DNA of 64,000 nucleotides from Eremomyces bilateralis CBS 781.70 (lineage: Eukaryota): the NCBI GenBank assembly GCA_010015585.1, contig ML975173.1; one strand, given 5' to 3'. The translations under genes were made by a program, and so were the position numbers. Of this stretch, positions 1-57,815 are shown in pieces (positions within the stretch are counted from its first letter, which is position 1; each line of letters begins with the position of its first letter). Below the pieces are notes generated by a model. That model was not told the DNA's origin. It was given only the letters and a program-made list of their open reading frames with translations, and made no database searches.

Positions 1-2177
1 TGACCGTCCCGTCGTGCGAGCCCGACGCCAGCGTCTTGCCGTCCGGCGAGAAGGCCACGGCCGAGACCCCGCTCGAATGGCCCTCGAGCGTCTGCAGCAC
101 CGCATTCCATTTCTCTTCGACCTGTAGTAACCTCCGTATCCATCTAGGTATGCAATTTGCGAATTGCTTTCTTATTATGCTCATTGTCGGTGCGAATGCG
201 AGGGCACTGCAGTACGTCTGAAGGGGAGCTAACCCGATAGCGTATCGATTGTAGACCACGAACCGCTTCGCCTCATAGATGATATCTGAGAGGCTAGGAC
301 AGTCACTTATCTAGTCGAAGTCTTAGCGAGATTATATACTATGCCGGAGGTATAACTAACGGAAGCAAGCGACTCTAAAGACGCGATGGTATGAATTCCT
401 TCCGATACCTGCCCCATCCATCCGAGAGTTTCGAGCCAGTGGAGGAAATGCTCTTGTAGGAAACGGTGTACTTGGTCGCCATCTTGAAGCTTGGCCTCGC
501 TTCTCTGGAGATGCTGGATCCAATATAGACATGCATACCGAACCTCAGGAGGGAGATGCTGCGCTGTAAGACTAGTTTCAATATCAGTCACTAATGCTCC
601 TGGTCGGTCCACACTAAGAATATCTTGCTTAAGAGCACCAGACATAAGCTTAATGCAGCTTGTAGCGAGTGATTTATGTGCTTGCTTCTCGTCAATCCCA
701 ATTTTCAAATCTGTACATCTCTTTGGGTCAAGGAGGAAGTCGCGGAACGATGGATGATGTAAACGCAGCGGCTGAGTCGAATTCTTTGGAACGTCCAGAA
801 TCGCATGAAGATCGTTCAGTGTTTGGTCTAGTTGTTGTAGCGTACTGTCGAGCGTAGTATCAAGCGTAGCGTGGAGTAGTTTCCCCAATGAGTCGGTGGA
901 TAGAGGAGAATAGAGGACAGCAATGGTCCCCATGGTTGTTCCAAGTCGCTCGCGCCATTTCTTGCTTTCTCGCCCCCTGTATTTTCGGATAGACTTCTTG
1001 AGAATTGTGATGTAGATGTTGTCCAGGTGCTGTTGTGGAGCTACTACAGGATCGCCATTCTTGTTATCTGTCGCGGAACTATCTGAAGACGACCCGTCTC
1101 CCGAGTCATCCGCAGAGTCAGGCTTGAGGATTATAGATATTCGATCTGCAGCAAAGTATTCGCCCTCCTCGATAAAGCGACATGCAGTTGCCGCCCAGAT
1201 GAATAGCTCATTTGCACTGTCAACGAGTTGACCAATGATATGCTCGTCAGGCCAACCAGCAGGGAGACAGTACCTACGAGCAATGTCTTCAAGCTTGTGC
1301 CGTAAGAAAATGCGGATATCATGATCGACAATCGACGACGATATTTCGTGGAGTATAAAATCCCGGTGTACAACATTTGGGATTTGGATGAAGCCGTTTC
1401 GGATCGGAACGTCAGGTCGGCTGGTTAAGAATACTCGAAGCTGGACCGTCTCTAAGGACCGAACCTCCGCTAGCAATTGTAAAATAGTCTGGATGTCGTT
1501 CTCGTCCTCGCACTCATCAAGCGCATCAACGACAAGAATATATCGGGGTTGGCTGCTGCTGCCCGCCAGCTGCGACAATGGATTAAGGACCAGATGGCGC
1601 CATTGTTCACTTAGATCCCGGTTGGCAATGTCGCTCTGGGCGGAAATCGCGTTGCAAATGATTCGTTTCAGATCCGGTACTTTGTTTGCCAGTTGTACTG
1701 CAACGCTTGTAACAAAATTACCGGCATGGCCGACATCTCCGCCGCCTCTTGAGAAGAAGAAACTAGCACCAAGGGTTTCCTTCGCCGGGTTCGCCCAATA
1801 CCTAGACACTGTTCGCGCCACCGTGGACTTGCCCGTGCCAGCCAAACCGCTTAGCCAAAAGATGCTCGGCGAATTTTCTCCCTTTACCCAGTTGTCTATA
1901 TCTTCACGGAGGCCGACGCGGGTATTGTCAAGGCAGGTCGGGTCATGTCGTCGCTGGTGTGCGTAGAACGGTGCGTCCTTCGCGGTAGGGAGGGAGCCGA
2001 GTATATCGTTCAAGTCTAGACTTGCCATTTAGCTTCCTGATGCTTCGAGCCCACAGCCAGTTAAGTACACTCACCTTTACTGGCCCCGACGTTCACAGAT
2101 CCGTGGAATTCATTATTACCAGCGATAACCAGCGAACCGTCCTTGGCGGTCGCATCGCTGATACGTTGCTGAGCCAT
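1..2177 (-). CDS. Fungal NLR: N-terminal amyloid-like motif + NACHT + WD40 repeats (NWD2/HET-E-like); runs off the left edge
   Basis: Walker A GLAGTGKS, Walker B ILVVDALDEC, FLTSRP and HHPSFRDFL motifs. Exons 2177-2075, 2015-361 and 310-<1. Introns 2074-2016 (GTGAGT..CTAG) and 360-311 (GTTAGT..GCTAAG..CTAG) splice in frame. The last exon reads APLQTYCSALAFAP...LQTLEGHSSGVSAVAFSPDGKTLASGSHDGTV, a WD40 repeat. Confidence 0.93.
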
Positions 2178-3321
2178 GAGCTTGGAGTAACGATGCTAAA
2201 TCTTTCGCCCTGCTAGTAGTTATTGATCTCTCGTTGCGAAATGCGAATACTGCGGCGTACGTGCGCAAGGAAACATTCTGGAGTGAGTCCATATCTACAT
2301 AGTATACCTACCCCCAGGTCACATGTGAGGTTCATTCTCAGCTGGCGAATGCATTCCGCCAGCCTCGCCAATGAACGAGCTTGCCTTGCCGCTGTCGGCT
2401 GCTGGAGAAATGCATCGGTTGCAGCCTGTAGAGTGCAGACCAAGTTGGATGCCAAGATCATTTCGTGAATACGCCGACACGGAGAAGGAGAAGGGTGGCT
2501 AGTGGCTACCCACTTTTTCGGTGTAGATCCCTTTATCTGACCAATGGAACTGAGCAAAGAGAAGGCTCTGGCGGGCTGGCCCCAATTGTTGAATCTGTAG
2601 ATTCTGTACGGAGGTGTTACCGACTTACCATACTGGCGGACGGGCTGTACCGCAGCTAGCCCAATCCATGTGGATCAGTCATTCCTCTCAGCCTTGAGCC
2701 TTGCAAAAAATAAAAGTCGGTCCCTACTCCCTGCAAGTTCCATAGCCAAATCATCTCATCCACACCGAGATACTTACTCGAGAGCCGAGTTATTCTCGCA
2801 TTGGCATAGTATATGATTCCATGGTTGATGGCAGCAAAGGTCTGGCCATTGTTGCGGACGTTTTGCTGATACTGCCTTGCTGGACGCAGTAAGGCGTAGT
2901 AGGTAAGGCATAACTGAAGCTGCTCTGGTGGGGCAAGGGTCCGCTGGACATTGGGTGCTAGTGCTGCCATTGCTACCATTGCTACTATTGCTTTATTAAT
3001 TATAACCAATTATTGAAAAAGTCTGGGACGCTCAGCAATACAATCTCATATTCGCCTTGATAAGTACTCTCGAGGTACTGTACTGCGTGGTAATTATATC
3101 AACGAACAAATTCAGGGTTTGGCAAATGGCATCTTCAAGTGGTCACGCCAATATGCGCGATGATTTGTCACAACACACGAATTGCGCCTCACTGAACCGC
3201 AGTCTTTTACTGCCCCGCATATATGGTTCATTGTTTCCTTTGTGTTTTAACCACTACCTCCTCTCCTTTCCCTTGGTTGAACCCATTAACTAGTCGATTC
3301 CTTTCCAGTGTTCGTTTAGTC

Positions 3322-4275
3322 ATGCCGGAACCTCTTAGCATCACTGCGGCTGTTGTAGGCATTACAGCCACAGCTCTCCAGAGCGTTCAATTTCTCGCCA
3401 AGACCATCGACAACATTAAAGACGCCCCAAGAACCGTCAAATTCATCAGCGCCGACCTTCGCGCAGTTGAGAGTGTGTTGCAGGATCTGGAAGTACAAGC
3501 CGATTCACCGCAACCCATTCAGAGTAAGCAAATCGGGCCTGCTGTCGAGAACTGTGACAGAGCATGCAAAGCATTTCAGTTGCAAGTCGAGCATTGGATG
3601 AACCGTTCCAAAGACGACAAGATGTTTTGGGTCTCTCGGTGGAGGGTTGGACTATTTGGGCAGGAGAGGATCAAGACATTCAAAGGGCAGCTTAGCGACT
3701 GCAAAAGCACTCTTAGCGTCGCACTGGCTACGGCAACTCTGTTTGTTTACCGACAGCCTTTCAGCCTGCCAATAGCTGACTGATTGAGTAGCTTAGCTGT
3801 AACTAGCCAAAAGGACCTGGCGAAAGAGCAGAGAGACAGCATGCTAAGGGTAAACGAAGCAGACCTTGCGCAAGAGCTTATTAGTGCAGGCAATGAAGGG
3901 GTGGAAATTGAGCGCAATCTGCAACAACTCATAGTTAGAGGAAGCACCGAGCCGGACGAGGAATCCGAGCAGAGCAAACAGGAGCTTCTCCAAGAGCTTC
4001 GGAGACAGCAAGCCGGCAACAATACCTTCAGAGAGATGTGTGAGGAAGCCCTTTCCAAAACAGTGTATGAGCGTACAGGGCAGAAGATCAAAGGTGTCAA
4101 GGCAACAAACAATAGTTCAGCTGTGACGGGATTCATCAACACTTCTGGGGAAGAGTCAAAGATCGATCAGGATATCTCTGATGTTACTGCTGATGGCCAC
4201 AGCGTGGTCATTGCTGGGGTCGTGAAGGGCTTCGATTTCAAGGACTTGCGTCTAGGTAAGCCTGGGGGTTCTTAA
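3322..4275 (+). CDS. HeLo-like (HELL/SesA-type) domain protein with a C-terminal two-repeat HET-s-related amyloid motif; putative cell-death effector, about 300 aa
   Basis: N-terminus MPEPLSITAAVVGITATALQSVQFLAKTIDNIKDAP is typical of HeLo-like domains. Intron 3741-3791 (GTTTGT..GCTGAC..TAG) joins the two ORFs in frame. C-terminal pseudo-repeats QKIKGVKATNNSSAVTG and QDISDVTADGHSVVIAG. Confidence 0.85.
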
Positions 4276-5623: not shown

Positions 5624-7817
5624 TCACCATCCCCAGTTCTCCTCACTCCACTCCCCCGGCGCTGCATTCCCCATCCCGACGTCGCAGAACAAGTCGACAT
5701 CGCAAAACACCCCCGACGGCCCCATATTGACCCCGAGACTGGACCCCATCCCCTCCATGTCCTGCCCGATCATCTTCAGATCCTCTGCTAACTTCAATTC
5801 CTCCTCCCGCGACTCCAGGTCCTGCGCTCCGCCCATCATCTGCGAGTCCATGGGGCTGGTCGGCGGTGTTTCTCCCGCGCTACTGACGCGACTTCGCGCG
5901 AGGCCGAAGTGGATTTTCTCGTCCGCGTCGAAGCTTTGGAGGCTTTTGGTCGGGGAGCCCAGTTGTGCGGGGCTGATAGTACCCAGCGGAGGCGACGCGG
6001 GCGGGGTTTTCGGATCCAATCCATGCGGCAGGCTGTTCCATTTAACGATACCGGGGAGTTCGACGTCTGCCTGGACGAGCGAGGGCGGGAGGGGAAATTC
6101 CTCCGTTAAACTTGCTGGCCCATCGCGATTGGCGCCGCCGGTGGCCGATGGGGACGAGGTGAACGATTCGGATTCGATTTCGTCGATGCTGAACTTGAGG
6201 TCGCTGCGAGGGTCAGTAGGCTGAACTAAGGGGAACCGTCCGATCCACGTACCTGAATGACACATCCTCCTGAGTGTCACCACCCAAAGTGGTGAACTGC
6301 GTGGCATCGAAGGGAGGCGGGCTGGTGGCCGGGCTAATTGGATATGAACCCTCCGATGCCCCCGACAAGGACGATGCATACGGGCCGCTGGAGTGGATCT
6401 CCAGGCCCGTTTCCTCCTCCTTATCCATGATCCTCGCTCGGAGCGCTTTCTCCACCCGCTGCTCCAACTCGGGTCTCTTCTTCTTCGGTCGCCCTCTCCT
6501 CGCCGTCTTCCGCACCGCATTTGGAAACGCTCCCGAGCACATGCCGCGCTGTCGATGCCGCGTCAACGCATCCTGGCGCTGAAACGCGGTCCCGCAGAGA
6601 CACTTGTGCGGCTTGTCGCCGAAATGGATCTTGGCGTGGCGCTTGAGGTCGTGCTGGCGGACGAAGCACTTGTTGCAGTCGTTGCAGCGGAACTGCCGGT
6701 CGCCGAGATGGGTCTGCACATGGGCTTTGATGTTTTCCTTGCGCCCGAAGGTCTTGCGGCACTGCGGGAACAGGCAGGTCCATTTGTGGCTGACGGGGTC
6801 TTGCTCGCCGATAAATGCTTGCACTTCGGCGGAGGAGATCCCCGTGTCTTCGATGGATGCGTTGAGGTACATGCCGGCAACCTGCACTCCGGCGGAAGGA
6901 GATCCAGGGTGAAATTGGGGTGACGAGAGGAGTGCATCAAGATCATCGCCTGCTTGGGACGAAGGCATGTACGGTGTGGTAGAGGGTGAGAATGAGATTG
7001 GTGGTGCGGGAGTGACGGGGAATCCGCCAAACGTGGCTGTTGATCGTAGTTGGGGCGAAACAGTCGGCGATCGCTCTGGAGAGAAAGCATCGGACGAATA
7101 ATACGACGACTCATTCTCTCGGTCGCTCTCCGGATTGTCCACGTTCATGGAGAAGACCTGCTCCATCCCTGGTGGGTCGAGATTGATCTCCGTCACGTCA
7201 CCAAAACTTGATGGCATGGGCGCCACATCTAAGTTGTCACCGTGTGGCGCCGTGTTCGTTTGTTTCTGCGGTGTTGCCATGGGCGTCGGGAGAATATTGA
7301 CTTGGATGATCCCCAGATCGCTGAACTCGTTGATGCGCTCACGGAATTCGCGGAGCCGCTCCTCCGGCGATTTCAGTGGCGATCGGGGGGTGGCTGGTTG
7401 TGAGTGCGTCGTCAACGACGCATTGTACTGAGTTGGGTCCGGGGAATAGGCCGCCCGCGGTCCTAGGGATTGATGGTGCTGGTTCTGTTGCCCCAGCTGA
7501 GGCATGTTTTGCAACTGCGCTACCTGCGTCGGATGTTGTTGAGGGTCCTGTCCTGTGTGGGGGTTAGCTATACTTACCGTCGACTCCAGCTCCTGGGTCG
7601 GCGTCGTGATCATCGAAGACAACGGCGGCGACCTCGTCCGCTTGTAGGGGTTCCGGGGGATGTCGAGACTCATCCCTCGTCGGTGACCCTGGTTGGTTTG
7701 ACGCTGGACGATGGCTGGAAGGGGTCGAACGTTGGCCGACTCAAGTTGAGGCGTGGAGTTTTGCCGACGGTGGGTCGTGCGGCGACGCTCAATGCTTGAG
7801 TTTGGCGTGGACAACAT
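5624..7817 (-). CDS. ACE2: C2H2 zinc-finger transcription factor, Swi5/Ace2 family
   Basis: Fingers WTCLFPQCRKTFGRKENIKAHVQTH / FRCNDCNKCFVRQHDLKRHAKIH / HKCLCGTAFQRQDALTRHRQRGMC, followed by RRGRPKKKRP. Intron 6252-6204 (GTACGT..CTGAC..CAG). Many S/T-P sites. Confidence 0.85.
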
Positions 7818-9170: not shown

Positions 9171-9818
9171 ACGTCTCGCTGCACACCAGTCAGAGTGATC
9201 TGAAAATGCCGTCGAAAGGCAACACTCGAGAGAAGATTGAAGTGTATGAATAGTCTCTAGATAAGAACCAAAACAGACCATTCTCGACATCATATGAGCT
9301 CCTTGGGCCATCTGTCCAAGCCTCCAAGGCCTTAAAGTGCGTGTAGCGTAGGGTAGAATATCTTCGACGCCCGTGATATCAGCCTATTTCGCACTGGGAA
9401 TATCAAATAGAATCCGGTAGTTGCAGCACATGCAGAAGGGAGACGGTCATAACTGTAAAAAATCCCATGTCTTCAAGCGATCATCGCCCATACTCAGTCC
9501 AATATCTACGTTCATTCCAGCCAATTGGCGATCAGATGTTCAGACGACTTGACAGGGGGCATCAACCTCAACTTACAACAATGAAATAAGTAAGACCAAG
9601 AAGTCAACAGGACATCGCAGCTCAAATAACATCCACATCTTTCCGAGAAATCGGTTGCTTTCCAGTCGCTTTATAGATACGTGATCTACAGCTTCCCCAA
9701 TGCAGTTCTCTGTGGAGGCCTATGCCTAGGCGCTCCCGGACTCGACCCTACTTCGAACGAGACCACCGTTCCCTTTCGACAACGCGCATAGATTCGTCGA
9801 CCCTTCACACTATCCAGC

Positions 9819-12800
9819 ATGTCGGACTTCTCCATGTTCCATGCCCTCGGGCAGCATTCCATAAACCCAAACGACCCAAAAGTCGAGCCCGAAGCGCCCC
9901 AGTTCCGACCGCCAATTGCACCAGCACCCTCGGGGTATCATCAATCAGGTTCATATCAGAGCGCTCCTCCGCAACAGCAACAATATGACCCTTCTGTCGC
10001 CCACACACAGCCGGGAACGCAAGCTGGGAACCCGCCATACCAGGAGCAGGGATACTTCGCGCCACCAGGATCAACGCCAGGAGCCGCACCACCCGCCGGA
10101 ATGGAGGGATTGACACAACAGATGAGCCACGTCGGTTTAGGGACCGAAGGCGCGGCTCCGGCAAGGACACATAAAAAGCGAGATCGGCATGCCTACCACA
10201 ATATCGAGACGCCGGGAGGCAGCTCGCAAGCGTTCAATGGGATGCCCCAAGGGCAGGTTGCGCCCTCTCAATATCTTAACCAACAGATCACTCCTGCGAT
10301 GAACCAATTCCCTGCCGCTGCGAACCCGATATTCACCCCTCAAGACCAAGCGACGGCACCGCAGCATGCCGCGCGGAGCAATACCCCTCTCCAAGGCAGT
10401 GCCGTCACATCCGCGCAGGGACGAGTCGATCCGGAGCAGATCCCAAGCGTCCCTCGAGCCCGGGACTTTGCAACCCAATACTATCTGGACCATGCGTATG
10501 CGACTGTGGAGCGACATTTACCACCTCCTGCGGCGGTCCCGTACATTGCCTTCGATCAAGGCAATGCCTCGCCGAAATTCACCCGATTGACGCTCAATTG
10601 CATCCCCTCGACACAAGAAGCGCTTGCGGCTACCAGCCTTCCTCTCGGCCTCATAGTGCAACCATTGGCGCGGTTGCAAGATGGAGAGCAACCCATACCG
10701 GTGTTGGATTTCGGCGACATGGGCCCTCCCCGCTGTCGACGATGTCGAGCTTACATCAATCCTTTCATGACCTTCCTTTCAGGAGGGAGCAAGTTCGTGT
10801 GCAACATGTGTACATTCCCGAATGACGTTCCGCCAGAATATTTCTCGCCGACCGACCCCTCCGGTGTACGGGTCGATCGACCGCAACGGCCGGAGCTAAT
10901 GCTGGGAACGGTCGAGTTTATGGTTCCGAAGGAATACTGGGGGAAGGAGCCGGTGCCATTACGATGGCTGTTTTTGATCGATGTGTGTGAAGAGTCGGTG
11001 AACAAGGGGTTCGTGGATGCTTTCTGCGAGGGAATCATGAGCGCCCTATACGGCCCATTTGACTCGGACAATGACAATGAGGAGGCTGGACGGCTGCCAC
11101 CGGGGTCACAAATTGGCATCGTCACGTTCGACAAGGAGATTCATTTCTATAATTTGAGCGCGGGGTTGGAAAAGGCGCAAATGATGGTCATGACCGATAT
11201 TGAGGACCCGTTCGTTCCGTTTAGTGAAGGCATGTTCGTCGATCCCGAGGAGTCGCGGACCGTCATCACCGCATTGCTTACGCAGTTGCCGAACATGTTC
11301 TCCGGGCTCAAGAACCCCGAACCGGCGCTGCTCTCGACACTCAATGCCGCACTGGAAGCGTTATCTACGACTGGAGGGAAGATTGTTTGCTCAATAGGCG
11401 AGCTGCCAACATGGGGACCAGGACGGCTCTTTTTCCGCGATGATACCAAGATGCACGGGACCGATGCAGAGAAGAAGCTGCTCACCACCGAGCATCCTCT
11501 GTGGACGAAAGCGGCCACGAAAATGGTGGAACATGGCATCGGAGTGGATTTCTTCATGGCGGCTCCCAGTGGCGGCTTTCTTGATATCGCGACTTTAGGT
11601 AAGTCTTGGAGGCTTTGGGCTTTGGCCTTTTTTAACGCATCGTAGGTCTCGTCTCGTCGAAATCCGGAGGTGAAATCTACTACTATCCCAACTTCCATGC
11701 CCCTCGCGATTCCCTTCGATTGGCACGGGAGATCAAACATACCGTGACACGGGAAACCGGATACCAAGCCCTCATGAAAGTTCGCTGTTCGAACGGCTTG
11801 CAAGTATCCGCGTACCATGGCAATTTCACCCACCATACGTTCGGAGCGGATCTAGAGTTCGGCGCCATCGACTCGGATAAGGCGCTCGCCGTCATGTTCA
11901 GCTACGACGGCAAGCTGGACCCGAAACTCGATGCGCATTTCCAAAGCGCGTTGCTTTATACGACGGCCAGCGGCCAGCGACGGGTACGATGCAGCAACAT
12001 TGTCGCGAGCGTGTCAGAGGGGTCGATCGAGGCGATGAAGCTCGTCGATCAAGAAGCCGTCGTGGACGTGATCGCCAAGGAGGCCGCCTCACGAGTACCC
12101 GAGAAGTCGCTCAAGGACGTTCGAAGCGCGTTGAACGAGAAGACCGTCGATATCCTGGCGAGCTACCGAAAGCTATCCTCGGGATCCCATCCACCCGGCC
12201 AATTGATCCTGCCCGAACTGATGAAAGAGTTCAGCATGTACATGCTCGGCCTGATCAAGTCTCGCGCTCTGAAAGGCGGACGCGAACCCACCGATCGTCG
12301 CGTTCACGATCTGAAATTGCTGAAGCAGATGGGCGCCATGGAGATGTCCCTGTACCTGTACCCCCGCGTCATCTCCCTCCACGACCTCGACGAGAAAGAC
12401 GGCTTCCCCAACGAAAACGGCCACCTCCGCATGCCCGCCACCGTACGCGCGAGCTTCTCCCGCGTCGAAGAGGGCGGCGTCTACATCGTCGACAATGGCC
12501 AAATTTGCCTCCTCTGGCTGCACGCGCAGGTATCCCCGAACCTCCTCGAAGACCTGTTCGGACCGGGAAATACCACACTCAAATCGCTGGACGCGTTCCT
12601 TGCTGCCCTGCCGGTCCTGGATACCCACCTCAACGCGCAGGTGCGCAACATCCTGCAGTACCTGGAGACGACGCGCGGGTCCAAGGCGTTGACGCTGCAG
12701 CTCGCGCGACAGGGGCTGGACGGCGCGGAATACGAGTACGCGCGGCTGCTGTACGAGGACCGGAACAACGAGGCGCAGAACTATGTGGACTGGCTGGTTC

Positions 12801-12969
12801 ACCTGCATCGACAGATCACCATGGAAGTAAGTGGACATCGAAATCGCAAGTGTTGAACTCTGACTGACGATGATAGCTTTCCGGCCAGCGGAAGAAAGAA
12901 GAGTCGACGAGCGATCCGTTGGCGGCGATAGGCACGGGATTTTCGGGCTTTCGGCCGTACTGGGGTTGA
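9819..12969 (+). CDS. SEC24: COPII cargo adaptor, Sec24 family (Sec24C/D-Sfb3/Lst1-like)
   Basis: P/Q-rich N-terminus, zinc finger PPRCRRCRAYINPF..CNMC, trunk, helical and gelsolin-like regions. Introns 11599-11645 and 12827-12876; ends GFRPYWG*. Confidence 0.93.
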
Positions 12970-13379: not shown

Positions 13380-16092
13380 TTATGCACTAGCCGTGACACC
13401 GGACCGCTGGGGCTGGTGTTGCGAGTTGGGTTTTAAGGTATACTTCGCAAACGCCCGCGCCAACGCGCGCTTGCAGCTGACTTTCTGCGAGTTGACGAAG
13501 CTGTCGACGGCGACGGCGATGGCGCGGTCCATGTCGTGCGAGTTGCAGTACTCCGACAGCCGCATCTTGCAGAACGCTTCGCAGGTTCGCATGATCGCTT
13601 CCAAATGCCGGATCTATCGAGTTTACTTAGCACGATATAATTGAAGGAAAATGACTGAGACTTACGGTGATGGGATATGCTCCTGTCGCCAGGGACTCGC
13701 GTCGCATGTCAGCGAACAGTCGGGCGATCTTGTCCCGGTCGATCTGGTACAACTTCGGCCGGCACCTTTCCCGGGCGTAGAGGATGTATTTCCGCAACAG
13801 TTCCTGCGGTATCTGTCCTTCGGTGTGCGCGGGGGGGGATTCCACGTCCATGCCGTCGGGGTTCGTCATGGAGGCATGTGCGCGTCCATGGCTGTTCACC
13901 ACGAAATTCGCCAGTCGCTCGTCCTCCTCGGGCTCGACGGTGTCCCGCACCACGCAGAGGATATCGAAACGACTCAGGATGGGCTCTGTCAGCTCGACGT
14001 TCTGGCTGAAAGGAATGGTGCTGTTGTAGCGACCTCCGATTGGATTGGCGGCAGCGACGATTGCGCACCGCGCTTGCAGGGTCGTGACGATGCCAGCTTT
14101 GCTGATGGAGATGGTCTGCTGCTCCATCGCCTCGTGGATACTGGTCCGATCTTGGTCGTTCATCTTGTCGAACTCGTCGATCAGGCAGGTGCCCTTGTCC
14201 GCTAGAACCAAGGCGCCACCCTCGAGCGTCCATTCGGAGGTCAGGGGATCGCGTCGTACCGAAGCCGTCAAACCCACTGCGGAGGCTCCTTGGCCCGTAG
14301 CGAAGACGGCTCGATGTGCGGTCTTCTCGACATATTTCAGCACCTGCGACTTCGCGGTCCCCGGATCGCCCAAGAGAAGCACGTTGATGTCACCTCGAAT
14401 GATATGTTTTCCCTGGGCTTCCTTGCTGACCCCACCAAACAGACTGAGAGCCACGGCGGTCTTGATGTCCGTGTGCCCGTAGATGCTGGGTGCAATGGAA
14501 TTGATGAGCTTGTCGATGATATTCGGGTCTTTGGACAAGGCGCGAATTTGCCGCTCATCTTCTTCCGTCAATCGGAATCCTGCGAGCTGGTCGTGCGACT
14601 TCACGACGTGATTGGCTTCCAAAATCGTTGCGAAGACAGGGAACCCGTTTTTGTTGTTCAGCGAGGCATCGTAGTTGTTCCGATAGGTGCCGGTGACCTC
14701 GATTTCCTCTCCAGGTTTGGCACTATCAATTAAGTCCCAGAGGAGGATGATCTCGCGGTGTCGAGGCAGCCGACCGGCCGGGACAGTCCCAGGAGACTCC
14801 TGGAGAGTCAGTTTCTGATAGTTCCGATACACGGTCTTCTCCGAGTTCAGAGTGAAGGGCCCTCTCTTTTGGCAGTATTGACAAAAGGAGATCTTCACTT
14901 CGATATTGGATTCTTGCGGGAAGGGGCCTAACACCGCACCGCAGTTGACACAGTCGAACTTGATGTATTTCAGCTGTGGGAACACTCCACTGCGACGGGT
15001 CACCACGCCGCTGACACGGACTAGGCAGTTTAGGTGCGTTTGACGCAGTTGACGAAGGGTATATCGCACCGGCAAGTCCGTGATTCGAACGTGAATTTCC
15101 GTGTGAATCCGCTCGTAGTCGGGATAATGCAGAAGCGTGACGTCCATGGCCACCTGATCGAAGATCTTCAGGATTTCAGCCGGGGTGTTGGCAAGGAAAT
15201 ATGCAAGAGTCGCCTTGGATTCCGCCAAGTGGTCGAAAGAGACCTCCAGGGACTCGGCGTTGACTTCACCGAGTGTCCGAATGCGGGTGCCGTATACTGA
15301 GCTCCCGGTTTCGTCGGTGTATTCGGTCAAGAACGACTTGAACTCTCGGGCAATCGTGCGGTGTACGGCAGGTTGAGCCACCCAATCGGTGACGCTTGCA
15401 GCCTTTACGTCTTGAAGAGCCTCGAGGGTCAGCTCTTCATTCATGATATCTTCGCCCATATCCACATCATCTTCGTCTTCGTCATAGCGGTGGCGCCGTC
15501 TTCTAGGTCCCCGAGCCGGGTCAAATATGGCATCGCCTTCCTCATGGTCGAGGAAGCCGGCTGGGATGTTCCGGGAGCGGGCTAGCTCTCTGTCGCGCCG
15601 ATTCAAACGCGCTTCCAGTTGTCGACGGGCGCCGAGGTCCATATCGCCGTAGTCGCCCAGGTCGTCGATATCTTTGGCATTGTACGCTTCGTCGTCTCGA
15701 CGGGTGCGGTAGTCGCGCTCGAAGGTGTCCGCAAACAGATCGATACCCGCCTCATCCTCGGCCATCTCATCCATGTCGTCAATGTCGCCGATGAGATCTT
15801 CATCGTCATCAATCAGATTATCATCGTCATCGTCGGCCGGGAGCATTGGTGGGGATGATGCAGGGGCTACACGGTCAGCTATATCACATCCGAGGGTTCA
15901 AACCACTTACGACTTGACGGTGGAAGTCCCGGAGAAGACATCATATTATCGTCATCCTCGCGGGCCCGTTTCCCTCGAGCGGCCGATGGAGACAGGCCAC
16001 GGTTCGCCGAGGACATGTTTGGCCGTAAAGGGGAGCTTAAACATTGTTAGCTATGGTTTCGAATGACCCTAAAACTTCCTATTATACCTCAT
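13380..16092 (-). CDS. MCM2: DNA replication licensing factor Mcm2
   Basis: Acidic N-terminus starting MSSPLRPNMSSANRG, C4 zinc finger, GDPGTAKSQ Walker A, IDEFDKM Walker B and SRFD arginine finger. Introns near 16087-16037, 15910-15865 and 13665-13615. Confidence 0.97.
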
Positions 16093-22726: not shown

Positions 22727-24720
22727 ATGTCCATAGTCTCAGGTAAGTGCTTCCATCCATTGCTACATATAGGCACTTACACGTCTGCAGAGTCAATCTG
22801 GGCCGCCGCACCCACCACCACTCGAGGCCAGCCCACTCAACTCTCCACCGATTCCAAAGGAGAACGGCTAGCATATGCTGTACGTTTGTTGCGCTCTATT
22901 ATAAGTCACCGGTCGAATAACAACGGAGCAGTCGGGTAAATCGGTATTCGTCAGGAACATCGACAATCCTGGCGTCAGCAAGCAATATACCTCGCACGTT
23001 GCGCAAACGACCGTCGCCCGGTTTGCGCCTTCGGGCTTTTATGTTGCCAGCGGCGATGTGTCCGGCACCGTAAGGGTGTGGGACTGTGTTGGCGAGGGGG
23101 CTACCAAAGGTTGTTTCCGTTCTGCAGCACTGAACCTCCTGTTAACGTCATCCAGGGGAGTATCATATCATCGCCGGCCCGATCAACGACATCGCATGGG
23201 ATGGCGATTCCCAGCGGATTATCGCCGTCGGGAATGGCAAGGAGCGATACGGTCATTGCATCACTGCAGACAGCGGAAACAGCGTGGGCGAGATCTCCGG
23301 CCATTCATCCTCGATCAATTCCGTCTCGATTCGACAACAGCGACCGCTCCGCGCAATGACGGGCAGCGACGATACCAATCTAGTGTTTTATCATGGCGCA
23401 CCGTTCAAGTTCCAGACCAGCTTGCGGAACCAGCACAACAAGTTCGTCTTAGGCTGCGGATTCAGTCCTGACGGTGCCAATATCGTCACCGTCGGCGCAG
23501 ACCGTCGCATATGGCTTTATGACGGCAAGTCCGGCGAATCGAAGACCCAGATCGGAGAGGGGGTCCACACTGGAAGTATTTTTGCTGTTTCGTGGGCGCA
23601 AGACTCCAAGAGGTTGGTTACCGCTAGCGCCGATCAAACCATCCGAATATGGGACGTCGAAGCAGGAAAAGCGGTCCAAACCTGGCGAATGGGCGAGGAA
23701 GGCATTCCGAACGTGCCCGACCAGCAGGTCGGAGTCGCTTGGCCGCATGGGCGCAGTGACGGTCTGATTATTAGCTGTGACTTGGATGGGAACCTCAACT
23801 ACCTCGTGGAAGGTAATCCCAAGCCGTCGAAGGTGGTGACGGGCCACCAGAAGAACATCACCTCATCGGTCCTCAGCGACCAAACCTTCTACACCGGAAG
23901 TTTCGACGGTCGCGTGCGTGCATGGGACATCGCGACAGGCCTGGCGGAGAAGATCGACGGCAATGGACCGAGTAACTATATTGCCGGGATGTCGGCGGTA
24001 CCGCTAGACGCATCTAAGGAGCCGGGATCGATCTACGTCGCTAGCTGGGACGACACCCTTCGTTCCATATCCGCCAAAACATTCACCGGCAGCACGTCGT
24101 CTCTCGGATCGCAACCCAAAGCACTAAGCGTCACCATCGCCGCGCCATCAGGGCCGATCGTCCTCGTCGCCACCTCCGATTCCCTGGATCTCTACTCTTC
24201 CGGCCAGAAGATCGCCTCGCATTCCGTCCCGTTCACCCCCACCGCCCTCGCCGCCCACGCCTCCACCATCGCCATCGGCGCGGACGACAAGTCCCTTCGA
24301 CTCTACACTCTCGCGTCGACGGACCTGACCCCCATCTCCGCCGAACCGCGGAAGCCCACCGCCCCCATCTCCACCCTCTCGTTCTCTCCCTCCGGATCCC
24401 TCCTTGCCGCGGGGACGACGGGCGGGAAGATCATGGTGTATGACACGAGCAACTGGTCGGTGAAGACGGACCGGTGGAGCGCGCATACCGCGCGGATCAC
24501 GTCGATTGCTTGGAATTCGGATAGTAGCTGTGCTGTGAGCGGGAGTCTCGATACTAATGTCATGGTCTGGAGTTTGCAGGACCCGGGGAAGAGGATCAAG
24601 GCGTTGAATGCGCATAAGGATGGGGTCAATGGGGTGGCGTGGGTTGAGGGGACGAGCAAGGTCCTTAGTACGGGCGGCGATGCTACGGTGAAGGCTTGGA
24701 CTGTGGATGGGGTTTCCTGA
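22727..24720 (+). CDS. AIP1: WD40 actin-interacting protein 1
   Basis: [46 protein letters not shown] and WSAHTARI motifs; three short 5' introns (about 22743-22790, 22880-22931, 23110-23155). Confidence 0.93.
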
Positions 24721-53682: not shown

Positions 53683-54470
53683 AGAAAGTGGATGGAGTTT
53701 TGTAGCTCTCAAGATCGGATCAGTGTGGATCGCAGAGCATGGCCAGGGGGTTTAATATGCAAAAATGGTGATAGAGGGGTGGAAATGGAGGAAGAAGTTC
53801 GATACCAGAGATGGGGTGGACAATGTGAAGGGTGGGAGGATGTCGCGGATGAATTGGATGATCAATGGTGGATTCATCTATTGGAGAGGTTGGGCCGTGT
53901 CACGTGAACTGCATGACTGCATCAACTTTGCTGACATAATCACGATATCTATATTGGTGCCTTAATGCCTTAAGCCTTCATGCCGCGACAGCTGAACCGA
54001 CGTAACGCAGTAAAAAAACTCGGCTTCTCTATCGATTGGATTCATTCCGATAGTCGTCAAGATTCAAGATGCGTGAGGCCGAGCAATTCCATACAGTATT
54101 CTGTATTTTCCAGGTGTTTCAATCGTACTAGTTTAAACTTGTCCCCTTTTCCAATACCGGTGCTGTTCTAGGTCTAGCTGTGGAATTCATAGCTCACTCC
54201 AGCTTTGCCCTTGAACCTAACAGGGATGTCTCAATACAACTACTGCTGTAGGTGGACTGTGGAGAGACGTCGAGTTTAAAGTCTAAACAACTGTCCATAA
54301 CCCTACTTTTCTCGCTGTAAATAACCCACGTCCGTCATGATCGATCGCACGTACCATTGGATGTTAATACTACCGTCCTTTTGAATCTACCATCGATTGT
54401 CTACGAACTTCACACCTGAAGGGCTTGTCTGGTCCTTCATCGTTCCAGGCGCGGGTTGAATGATGCCACC

Positions 54471-57400
54471 ATGTCAGCGACGGCGACTCCGGGAATCGCC
54501 TTGCAGCATCTCTCCCTTGCTAATGGGCGAGTCGCAACTCCGAAGATAGACTCTACGACTTCGTCGAGATCGGGTTCGCGTGCTGAAAGGCTAAGAAGGC
54601 CGTCGGTAGGAGCCTCATCAAGAGCATCCGCACAACCGACACGGCTAACAGATTGCCAGACTGCTACCTCATCCTACTCAATACTCACACCATCAGAGAC
54701 AGCCCTACGTCTTCGAACCTCACTTACGCATGGGCTTTCCCCGTCCGAAATCGTCTCTCGCCTCCATGTATATGGCTCGAATGAGCTTCCTCGAGAAGAG
54801 CCGGAGCCACTATGGCTTCGATTCCTCAAGCAATTCAAGGAGACCCTCATATTGCTACTCCTTGGATCTGCCGCCATCAGCTTCTTGATGGGAAACTATG
54901 ATGATGCCATCAGCATAGCCGTCGCAGTTACAATCGTCGTCTCGGTCGGTTTCGTGCAGGAATATCGAAGCGAGAAGAGTCTCGAGGCGTTGAACCAGTT
55001 GGTCCCGCACTTCGCACACGTTATTCGTGCGGATGGCGCGATTCGTCCTGACCGATCAGCGAGAACCACTCCAGGCGTGCCAAAAGGAAGAGAAGGAGAA
55101 GACGATGAAATTCAGGACACTGCCAAATCGCTCGAAGCCGCCGAGGCCACCTCCACCACGCTTACCGGCTCTCAACTCGTGCCAGGCGACCTCGTCCTGT
55201 TCCATACCGGCGATCGGATCCCTGCCGACATTCGCATTACACACAGTGCCGACCTCTCCATCGACGAGTCGAATCTGACCGGAGAAAACGAGCCGGTTTC
55301 GAAATCACCCGCCACTCTTGTAAGCCACGCATCATCTACCGTATCCCGGGAACCTTCGCCAAACGGTACTGCCTCCATATATGCCTCGCCAGCTGCCGGG
55401 ACGGTCGGCGCCGATATTCGCTTAAACGATCAAACGAACATCGCATTCATGGGGACCTTGGTACGGAGTGGGCATGGGTCAGGTATTGTGATCGCCACGG
55501 GCGGGTCGACCGAGTTCGGTGCCATCTCTGCCAGTTTACAGGAGATTGAGTCTCCTCGGACCCCTCTGCAGCTCTCCATGGACCGGCTCGGCAAAGAACT
55601 GAGTTATCTGTCCTTCGCCGTCATCGCCTTCATCATGCTCCTGGGGGTGTGGCGAGGGTGGGAATTTCTTGAGATGTTCACCATCGGCGTGAGCTTGGCC
55701 GTCGCCGCTATTCCAGAAGGCCTTCCCATCATCGTGACGGTCACGCTCGCGCTTGGGGTCCTCCGAATGTCGAAACGCGGGGCCATTGTCCGTCGTTTGC
55801 CCAGCGTCGAGACGCTCGGGAGCGTGAATGTCGTGTGCAGCGATAAGACGGGGACGTTGACCACGAACCATATGACCGTCACCAAAATTTGGCATTTCAC
55901 GCCTGGTGCGACGTCCGAACCGATTTCCATCAGCGCCAAGCAGCAATCCCTCTCCACGTCCGACCTCGACTTTGCCACGCGAACCATCCTTCGCATCGGA
56001 AATATTGTTAATAATGGGCGACTCATGTCCGGATCGTCCAGCACGCCGGCCTCTGCGGCCTCCGCTGCGATCCTGTCGTCTTCTGCAAGTGATCCATCCT
56101 CTGCCAAGAGTCGCTGGGTCGGACAGCCCACCGACGTTGCGCTTTTAGATCTCCTCGACGCGTTCGGGGAGGCAGACGTGCGAGACCGGATCGGCCCACG
56201 TCGGGACGAGACCCCGTTTAGTTCTGAGCGGAAATGGATGGGTTGTGTGATCCACCCTGGCCCCGACAATCCCAACGGCTACGATGTTGCGTATGCGAAA
56301 GGGGCCCTCGAACAAGTCCTCTTACGATGCGATACCTACATCACTACGGACGGAAAGGAAGTGATACTAGATGAAGCAAGGCGAGAGGAAGCGATCAAGG
56401 CAGCCGAGAAGATGGCGCAAGAAGGCCTAAGGGTTTTAGGATTTGCCAGCGGCCCCAAGAAGAGCGGGAAGCTCTCACCTTCTAGTGCTCAAAGACCCAA
56501 CCTAAGCGGGTATTCCACGCCGCAATTATTGCCCGACCCCAGGGATAAGACACAGGCGAGCCATAGCGACGAAGACCTGTATAAGGGTCTCGCTTTTTCC
56601 GGGCTTGTTGGTATGAATGATCCTCCGCGCCCCAACGTTGACCGATCCATTCGGCGACTTCTCGCAGGAGGAGTCCGAGTCATCATGATCACCGGTGATG
56701 CAGAGCATACCGCCGTAGCCATTGCCAAGAAACTGGGCATACCGTTAAACTTCAACTCGGCCATTGGTCCGTCCGTGCTTCGAGGCGACCAACTGGATCA
56801 GATGAGCGAAGAAGAGCTCAGCCAGGCTATCGGCACGACCACGATCTTCGCCCGCACGAGCCCGGAGCACAAGATGAAGATCGTCCGGGCGCTCCAGGCT
56901 CGAGGAGACGTCGTTGCCATGACCGGCGATGGCGTGAATGACGCTCCGGCGCTGAAAAAGGCGGACATCGGCGTGAGCATGGGCCGTCTAGGCACCGACG
57001 TGGCCAAGGAGGCCGCGGACATGATATTGACGGATGACGATTTCTCTACGATCTTGAACGCCATAGAGGAGGGCAAAGGGATCTTCTACAACATTCAAAA
57101 TTTCCTCACATTCCAGCTGAGCACCAGCGCGGCGGCCCTTGGCCTGGTCATGGTTAGCACGGTCGCGGGCTTCAAAAATCCGTTGAACGCCATGCAAATC
57201 CTATGGATAAGTACGTCTCGCTGACGTCTTTGTTGGAGACGTCCACTAACCACGACTGTAGACATCCTAATGGACGGTCCCCCAGCGCAATCTCTCGGCG
57301 TCGAACCCGTAGACCCCGCCGTCATGAAACTCCCCCCCCGCTCCCGACACGCGCGCGTCCTTACCCCCCAACTCCTCCGCCGCGTGATTCAGTCCTCCCT

Positions 57401-57815
57401 CATCATTATGCTCGGCACACTCTCCACCTACATCCTCGAGATGGCCGACGGACAGGTCGTCACCGCGCGGGACACCACCATGACCTTCACTTGTTTCGTG
57501 CTCTTCGACATGTTCAACGCGCTGACGTGCCGCTCCGAGGCGAAGAGCGTGCTGCGCGGTGAGCTGCCGATCGTTGGGAAGGGGAGCAACAAGATGTTTA
57601 ACTACGCGGTGACGGGCTCGTTGGTGGGGCAGTGCGCAGTCATCTATTTCCCGCCGCTGCAGAGCATTTTTCAGACGGAGGCCATTGGGATCCTGGATTG
57701 GATCCGGCTGCTCCTCGTTGCTAGCCTGGTTTTCTGGGCGGACGAGGGCCGCAAGGCTTATAAACGTTGGAACGCGGCGAGTCGGACGGCCAGTGGTTAT
57801 AGCCTCAACGTATAA
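54471..57815 (+). CDS. PMR1: Golgi Ca2+/Mn2+ P-type ATPase (SPCA)
   Basis: [38 protein letters not shown] and [14 protein letters not shown] motifs. GCCACCATG start context. Intron 57211-57261 and a probable in-frame intron 54606-54659. Confidence 0.96.

Follow-up and report, generated by a model that had tools for sequence, protein, structure and literature searches.

The 64,000-nt stretch of contig ML975173.1 from Eremomyces bilateralis CBS 781.70 analyzed here (the window) likely carries a pair of genes that form an amyloid signalling unit of the NWD2/HET-S type, in which the 5' end of the receptor gene was renewed by recombination. The receptor is encoded by a minus-strand NLR gene (L001) that begins with a short trigger-motif exon, and a divergent neighbour encodes the putative executor; judged by their motifs and arrangement, the two very probably form an amyloid signalling pair. 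The present 5' module of the receptor (about 2500–1945) apparently came from another paralog family, and a decayed trigger exon of an older type lies stranded upstream of it. On sequence grounds, a swap history at this locus is highly likely. The trigger exon and its motif are themselves ordinary, and an NWD2/HET-S-like pair is an already known kind of system.

Structure of the receptor gene

Exon 1 of the NLR gene spans 2177–2075 on the minus strand (103 nt, 34 codons plus 1 nt, starting at ATG 2177). It is followed by a 59-nt, phase-1 GT-AG intron (2074–2016, minus strand) with a GTGAGT donor and a CTAG acceptor, and the exon join G|AC encodes Asp and restores the NACHT frame. All these coordinates and signals agree with those proposed in the preliminary description, which had called the exon hidden. 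It is hidden only from the bare ORF track, because the database model of the window gene, P0241, already starts with exon 1 and carries the 2075/2015 junction. The database models, which are gene predictions, have an equal junction in five paralogs (P0121, P0137, P0288, P0305 and P0309), and the model of another paralog, P0280, differs by an earlier donor. Enumeration gave 14 frame-restoring GT/GC-AG joins, and the consensus-type donor belongs to the join at 2074; the 13 others were rejected for their weaker donors and for positions that differ from that in the paralogs.

A NACHT query of the genome returned 47 matches, 30 of which were taken as loci. Comparison of exon 1 across paralogous NACHT genes, as the preliminary description had proposed, showed that the layout recurs in 15 paralogs, so that 16 distinct genes including that of the window have a motif exon of 100–133 nt and an intron of 48–59 nt at the same site; their agreement in phase is partly by construction, because the search anchor demanded this junction. 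Two of the remaining 14 loci are duplicates of genes already counted. The other 12 were looked at separately and comprise two with a candidate phase-1 intron near the site, two with a phase-2 intron, one with no candidate and seven with no anchor. The intron 1 donor is GT in 12 of the 16 genes and GC in four, the GC-AG introns being those of L002, L004, L013 and L021. The branch-like GCTAAAT of the preliminary description is indeed present in the window intron, but it is the sole non-consensus branch site of the 16: a pyrimidine follows the branch A in 15/15 paralogs, against an A in the window gene. Taken together, intron 1 is almost certainly used. In L019, exon 1 (L019:1305-1436) measures 133 nt and its motif is partly duplicated, giving one and a half tandem motifs.

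Exon 2 (360–2015, minus strand) encodes the NACHT/NPHP3_N nucleotide-binding region and helical domains (PF24883, E 3.6e-31; PF05729, E 3.6e-9); its frame stays open for 573 codons, and the P-loop is intact. Exon 3 (1–310, minus strand), joined to exon 2 as in P0241, begins the WD40 sensor (PF00400, E 5.2e-12) and extends past the window edge. A NACHT with a P-loop followed by WD40 repeats is the architecture of an NWD receptor. P0241 is 721 aa long and finishes with an off-frame tail, and the WD40 array continues beyond the window; the receptor may be incomplete, because the array is unreadable past the window and P0241 ends early. In distal exon 2, the segment 615–416 shares 76–92% identity with L003, a further mosaic switch.

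Trigger motif of exon 1

Residues 2–22 of the exon 1 product are a single r0 motif of the HET-s-related HRAM2 type. The rules given in the accessible text of PMC4518210 are G19 and hydrophobic residues at positions 5, 8, 10, 16 and 18, with Q3 in HRAM2, and r0 has Q3, G19 and all five hydrophobic residues (5/5). Q3 and G19 also occur in both repeats of the neighbouring executor, r1 and r2, and r1 departs from the hydrophobic pattern at position 18 (T). Position 15 is L, S and V in r0, r1 and r2, respectively. The R/K preferred there is absent; it is described as a preference, not a requirement, and the closest published rows likewise have no R/K at 15 (PMC4518210 and its file 2, as far as accessible). 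The same text describes r0 motifs as charge-poor, and the window r0 contains four charged residues. The HRAM2 subfamily call rests on the text rule, because file 2 of PMC4518210, in its accessible part, has no group labels.

The window r0 is identical to executor r2 at 11/21 positions, a value reached by 0/100,000 shuffles, and to r1 at 5/21. Its r0-r2 identity is the highest of the 16 genes; its summed BLOSUM score on the neighbour is 54, and several unlinked paralogs score higher there (up to 79). The earlier proposal that exon 1 encodes an amyloid-type trigger motif is thus well borne out by the Q3, G19 and hydrophobic rules and by the r2 match, which point to an HRAM2 r0. Gene conversion of r0 from executor r2 was considered and rejected, as the synonymous codons differ (judged by eye). 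The motif is not of the canonical HET-s (HRAM1) kind: Q3 replaces N3, and none of the five PF14479 matches in the genome lies at the locus.

A head-to-head executor gene

The preliminary description had missed the divergent neighbour, a HeLo-like gene at 3322–4275 on the plus strand. Its exon 1 (3322–3740) encodes a HeLo-like domain with a predicted hydrophobic first helix (PF17111, E 7.3e-23), and its exon 2 (3792–4275) encodes a helical linker, r1, an 8-residue loop, r2 and an aromatic tail; the 51-nt, phase-2 intron between them (3741–3791) agrees with the database model P0001. PF17111 is the HeLo-like family in the accessible part of PMC9815663. The gene is intact, and its 300-aa product is identical to P0001, with two 21-residue repeats separated by 8 residues and two Phe after r2. 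An HRAM unit, as defined in the accessible text of PMC4518210, is a HeLo-related protein of <310 aa whose C-terminus carries two repeats, a loop of 6–18 residues and an aromatic tail. All of these are found in the executor, from the two repeats and the 8-residue loop to the aromatic tail and the length of 300 aa. Row 121 of file 2 in the same source is identical to r1 at 19/21 and to r2 at 15/21 positions, with an equal 8-residue loop (compared by eye). The present ATG-to-ATG distance between receptor and executor is 1145 nt, head-to-head.

HeLo-like and MLKL-like executors are marked by a bundle of four helices, the first of them hydrophobic. The structural model of the window executor comprises a helical N-terminus or bundle and four strands in two pairs at residues 237–285 (pLDDT 63–77, pTM 0.42). 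Fold searches with this model returned generic bundles (best Z 12.5, rmsd 3.0, 133 aligned), and HET-s and MLKL were absent among the matches listed. Foldseek gave no match at E 0.001, and a sequence search of solved structures gave none below E 0.45. Membrane targeting and cell death are functions that the executor would share with its family.

In their composition, the two genes resemble the HRAM2 NLR/HeLo-like pairs in the accessible part of PMC4518210, which combine an NLR that carries one r0 with a HeLo-like protein of <310 aa, encoded next to it, that carries two repeats; Q3, G19 and the hydrophobic pattern are shared as well, and file 2 contains near-identical r1/r2 rows. No experimental test of HRAM2 is reported in that part of the source. 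The NWD2/HET-S system of Podospora anserina is alike in that its two genes are adjacent and divergent, its receptor is r0-NACHT-WD40, its motif has 21 residues and its model is one of templating (PMC3321046, PMC4344463, as far as accessible). It differs in using HRAM1 (N3) and a HeLo domain, compared with HRAM2 (Q3) and a HeLo-like PF17111 domain in the window, and in having the motif and NACHT together on one exon 1 (PMC4344463), which are on separate exons in the window gene. By analogy with NWD2/HET-S, a ligand would bind the WD40 sensor and the NACHT would oligomerise; the clustered r0 motifs would then form a β-solenoid that templates r1-r2, and the HeLo-like domain would insert in the membrane and kill the cell. 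A precedent for the hidden exon is het-eN/sesA/sesB in Nectria haematococca, where the amyloid motif was first missed through an unnoticed 5' intron; that system differs in its sigma motif, ankyrin sensor and other effectors (both from the accessible text of PMC3321046).

Probable renewal of the receptor 5' end

An older r0 exon, of the type seen in L007 and L041, lies stranded at 2951–2778 on the minus strand, followed by a GTAAGT donor at 2777. Its decay shows in an insertion of 48 nt, a deletion of 4 nt and an Ala where G19 would be, and its own ATG frame meets a stop ahead of the donor. Over 3317–2733, the window aligns collinearly with L007 (and L041) from the upstream DNA through exon 1 into the first bases of the intron, and homology to the old intron ends at 2733. 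The DNA score with L007 was 135, against a maximum of 74.7 in 300 shuffles; L041, a decayed pair, scored 145.9, without shuffles of its own. Over the exon only, L007 scored 82.6 vs 18–33 for the other 15, and tblastn with P0122 matched the old exon at E 5e-6. The ancestral intergenic region (2952–3321) is likewise collinear with the upstream DNA of L007 and of the decayed pair at L041 (C2:1111750-1112950), which is of the ancestral type. From the old-exon ATG to the executor ATG is 371 nt, similar to the 416 nt of the pair at L040, compared with 1145 nt now.

A term search of the accessible part of PMC4518210 file 2 returned 11 rows with this executor subtype. Five are partnered by an r0 of the old-exon type (rows 52, 66, 78, 108 and 121), three by a Q-S-I-S type (rows 68, 71 and 72), which is closer to the present window r0, and three by none. 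Unlike these published pairs, the window has both r0 types in tandem, one of them decayed, and its present r0 is charge-rich.

The affinities of the receptor gene change along its length. Its intron 1 shares 78–83% identity with those of nine members of the L005/L006/L019 family (the donor family), and only 56–61% with those of L002, L004, L007 and L021, whereas L002 is the nearest relative for most of its NACHT. In the NACHT tree, the window gene grouped with L002 (100/99), and both joined L007 (100/100); in the tree of the 5' module, L002 grouped with L004 and L021 (100/100), and the window gene fell outside. AU tests, for which the clades were named after the trees had been seen, rejected two groupings of the window gene, that with L002 for the 5' module (p 1.4e-6) and that with the donor family for NACHT (p 1.7e-7), and two further cross-constraints were also rejected (p 2.5e-10 and 1.3e-3). 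Maximum chi-square analysis placed the inferred 3' crossover at 1954–1938 (minus strand), 60–77 nt inside exon 2. Permutation p values were 0.001–0.007 with four donors in a first run and 0.001–0.019 with three donors in a second, where L019 as donor gave p 0.12. Upstream of exon 1, the region 2178–2505 (minus strand) is homologous to that of 10/15 paralogs, the donor family. It holds an element of about 80 bp (2326–2408, minus strand) with an imperfect palindrome; the element is 76–97% identical upstream of nine paralogs, aligned in 10, and found at eight places genome-wide, one of which (C8:225343) is outside the NLR loci examined; it is a candidate shared promoter element. The stretch 2735–2490 had no source in the 15 paralog upstream regions or in the genome, the genome search having also missed the L007/L041 homology.

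These data suggest the following course. Originally, exon 1 would have been of the L007/L041 type and would have lain at 2951, 371 nt away from the ATG of the executor. About 550 nt from the other paralog family, comprising the upstream region, exon 1, the intron and the first ~70 nt of exon 2, would then have entered, joined at one end by homologous crossing-over within exon 2 and at the other, between 2733 and ~2500, without homology, after which the stranded old exon would have decayed. The direction of the swap, into the window gene, is indicated by the old exon left upstream.

The preliminary description had suggested that a motif on its own exon would allow N-terminal module swapping. 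Swapping evidently did occur here, as the stranded exon and discordant trees indicate, but having an exon of its own is not established as what enabled it, because the 3' crossover was placed within exon 2 and not in the intron. That exon shuffling through intron 1 is how N-terminal modules swap in this family is unlikely. Many homologs do switch N-terminus near the exon 1/exon 2 junction, and L016 and L017, which have other N-termini, each carry a candidate phase-1 intron close to that position; however, the introns there in L020 and L029 are of phase 2, L002 has no significant breakpoint (p 0.17 and 0.21), and around the sole mappable crossover the ratio of donor-like to other sites falls from 11/1 in the first 70 nt of exon 2 to 3/14 in the next 80. 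Other N-termini joined to the same NACHT family (L011, L012, L017, L020 and L029) we take to be SIR2-like and HET-like domains; they also include a short glycine-rich motif on a phase-2 exon. In other fungi, P0122, P0283 and P0246 combine a similar NACHT head with three r0 types, two of them within one species. Swaps of r0 may be recurrent.

Domain reassortment in fungal NLRs is generally deduced from conflicting trees, whereas at this locus the former module, the donor family and one crossover are each traceable. Fungal NLR NODs 99% identical with different N-termini (PMC4986451) and extensive N-terminal shuffling (PMC13449251) have been described, and the accessible parts of these papers and of PMC9815663 report neither the position of a crossover nor an old exon left behind; N-terminal reassortment was not found in that of PMC12258605. 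A search of mostly open-access literature likewise found no case of an amyloid exon left stranded together with a crossover that had been mapped.

Integrity of the pair

It is rather improbable that the pair is instead decaying, with a receptor that is poorly spliced or truncated in its WD40 region, an r0 that drifts and an executor served by other receptors. Several features are compatible with decay, including the non-consensus branch site, the short P0241 with an unreadable WD40 region, and the broken state of several paralogs and executor copies. Between the window r0 and the donor family, pN (0.32–0.41) is about equal to pS (0.30–0.46) over 19 codons, a comparison of low power, and the flanks differ; this similarity fits tuning or relaxation alike. 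Against decay, exon 2 has kept its full open frame and P-loop, r0 retains Q3, G19 and its five hydrophobic positions along with the highest r2 identity of the 16, and the executor is intact. A signalling unit with a renewed receptor 5' end is the preferred reading.

Alternative starts of the receptor

The preliminary description had noted an ATG inside intron 1 in frame with NACHT, and this was confirmed: it lies at 2028–2026 (minus strand), overlaps the branch site and opens the 573-aa NACHT ORF. It was suggested there that intron retention or a downstream start could yield a motif-less, possibly inhibitory receptor; that the ATG is used, through retention, reinitiation or an internal start, to make such a dominant-negative receptor is very improbable. 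The ATG is in frame and open, the A after the branch A that creates it also weakens the branch consensus, one extra base puts it in frame, and L002 and L019 too have in-frame intronic ATGs. However, the position has no ATG in 15/15 paralogs; in-frame open intronic ATGs occur in 3/16 introns against 2.69 expected from shuffles, each at a different distance from the acceptor (13, 25 and 52 nt). Retention of intron 1 leads to a stop after 38 codons (a 38-aa product), three ATGs (2177, 2155 and 2113) precede ATG 2028, which has T at -3, and the conserved upstream DNA sits 5' of exon 1, not in the intron. ATG 2028 is thus read as a product of drift at the branch site, apparently without a role. No motif-less fungal NLR isoform was found in the mostly open-access literature searched.

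Also very improbable is that 2951–2778 serves as an alternative first exon, whose splicing to 2015 across 762 nt would produce a receptor that lacks a working r0: the frame from ATG 2979 or 2970 is open to the donor at 2777 in phase 1 and GTAAGT is kept, but the frameshift, insertion and G19 loss look like decay, both ATGs are absent in L007 and L041, and family introns measure 48–59 nt.

Receptors and executors elsewhere in the genome

An executor is present in the upstream DNA of only 2/16 genes (up to ~6 kb scanned; 2 kb for L004). Executor searches, covering 14 PF17111 and five PF14479 matches and two C-terminal searches, found at least three intact double-repeat executors, namely that of the window and those of L040 and L043, which are of another subtype; the counts are lower bounds. 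A scan of 13 loci for a double repeat found one broken single-repeat copy only, and eight loci viewed by eye had no repeat tail. The window executor is the sole intact one of its subtype found. Degenerate copies comprise a stop-ridden executor beside L016 (L042, C24:35092) and a broken one with a single repeat in frame (L044, C15:73428).

Nine of 14 unlinked r0 motifs score best on the window executor, seven of them from genes with an open NACHT exon; L003 was misregistered in this scoring. Identity and BLOSUM scoring is a weak predictor of partners, because the r0 of L002 scores 61 on the window executor vs 52 on its own neighbour. The window executor possibly serves unlinked receptors. In the accessible part of PMC9815663, unlinked amyloid signalling and a receptor excess were already proposed, and NLR-side motifs exceed effectors, at 5.7:1 for the NLR12 HRAM variant; that ratio concerns PNP_UDP effectors, not HeLo-like HRAM2. 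The window pair may be listed in the supplements of that paper.

A tentative extension is that the captured trigger exon diverged to fit its neighbour, and that this neighbour, the sole intact executor of its subtype, is a shared output of dispersed, unlinked receptors; the two HRAM2 subtypes would then be separate many-to-one death circuits, rewired by crossovers in the first NACHT codons. The locus provides a test set for HRAM2 cross-seeding, consisting of the old-type r0 of L007, a donor-type r0, the present r0 and two executor subtypes, and it also suits asking whether unlinked receptors signal to one executor. Cross-seeding of HRAM2 variants was left to functional studies by the 2015 paper (PMC4518210, accessible text).

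The intact executor L043 (C15:1-1700) and an r0 NLR of matching subtype (C19:1-2900; L004, L074) lie near contig starts and point away from them, and the r0 of this NLR is identical to r2 of the L043 executor at 10/21 positions; the two are possibly one pair split at a repeat. What we take to be a transposase-like ORF lies upstream of L004, and another beside the L040 pair. The remainder of the window (6213–64000) presumably contains ordinary housekeeping genes, among them those for a C2H2 factor (6213–7817), a Sec24-like protein (9792–12856), an MCM2-like protein (13627–15897), a WD40 Aip1-like protein (23146–24720) and a P-type ATPase (54420–57815).
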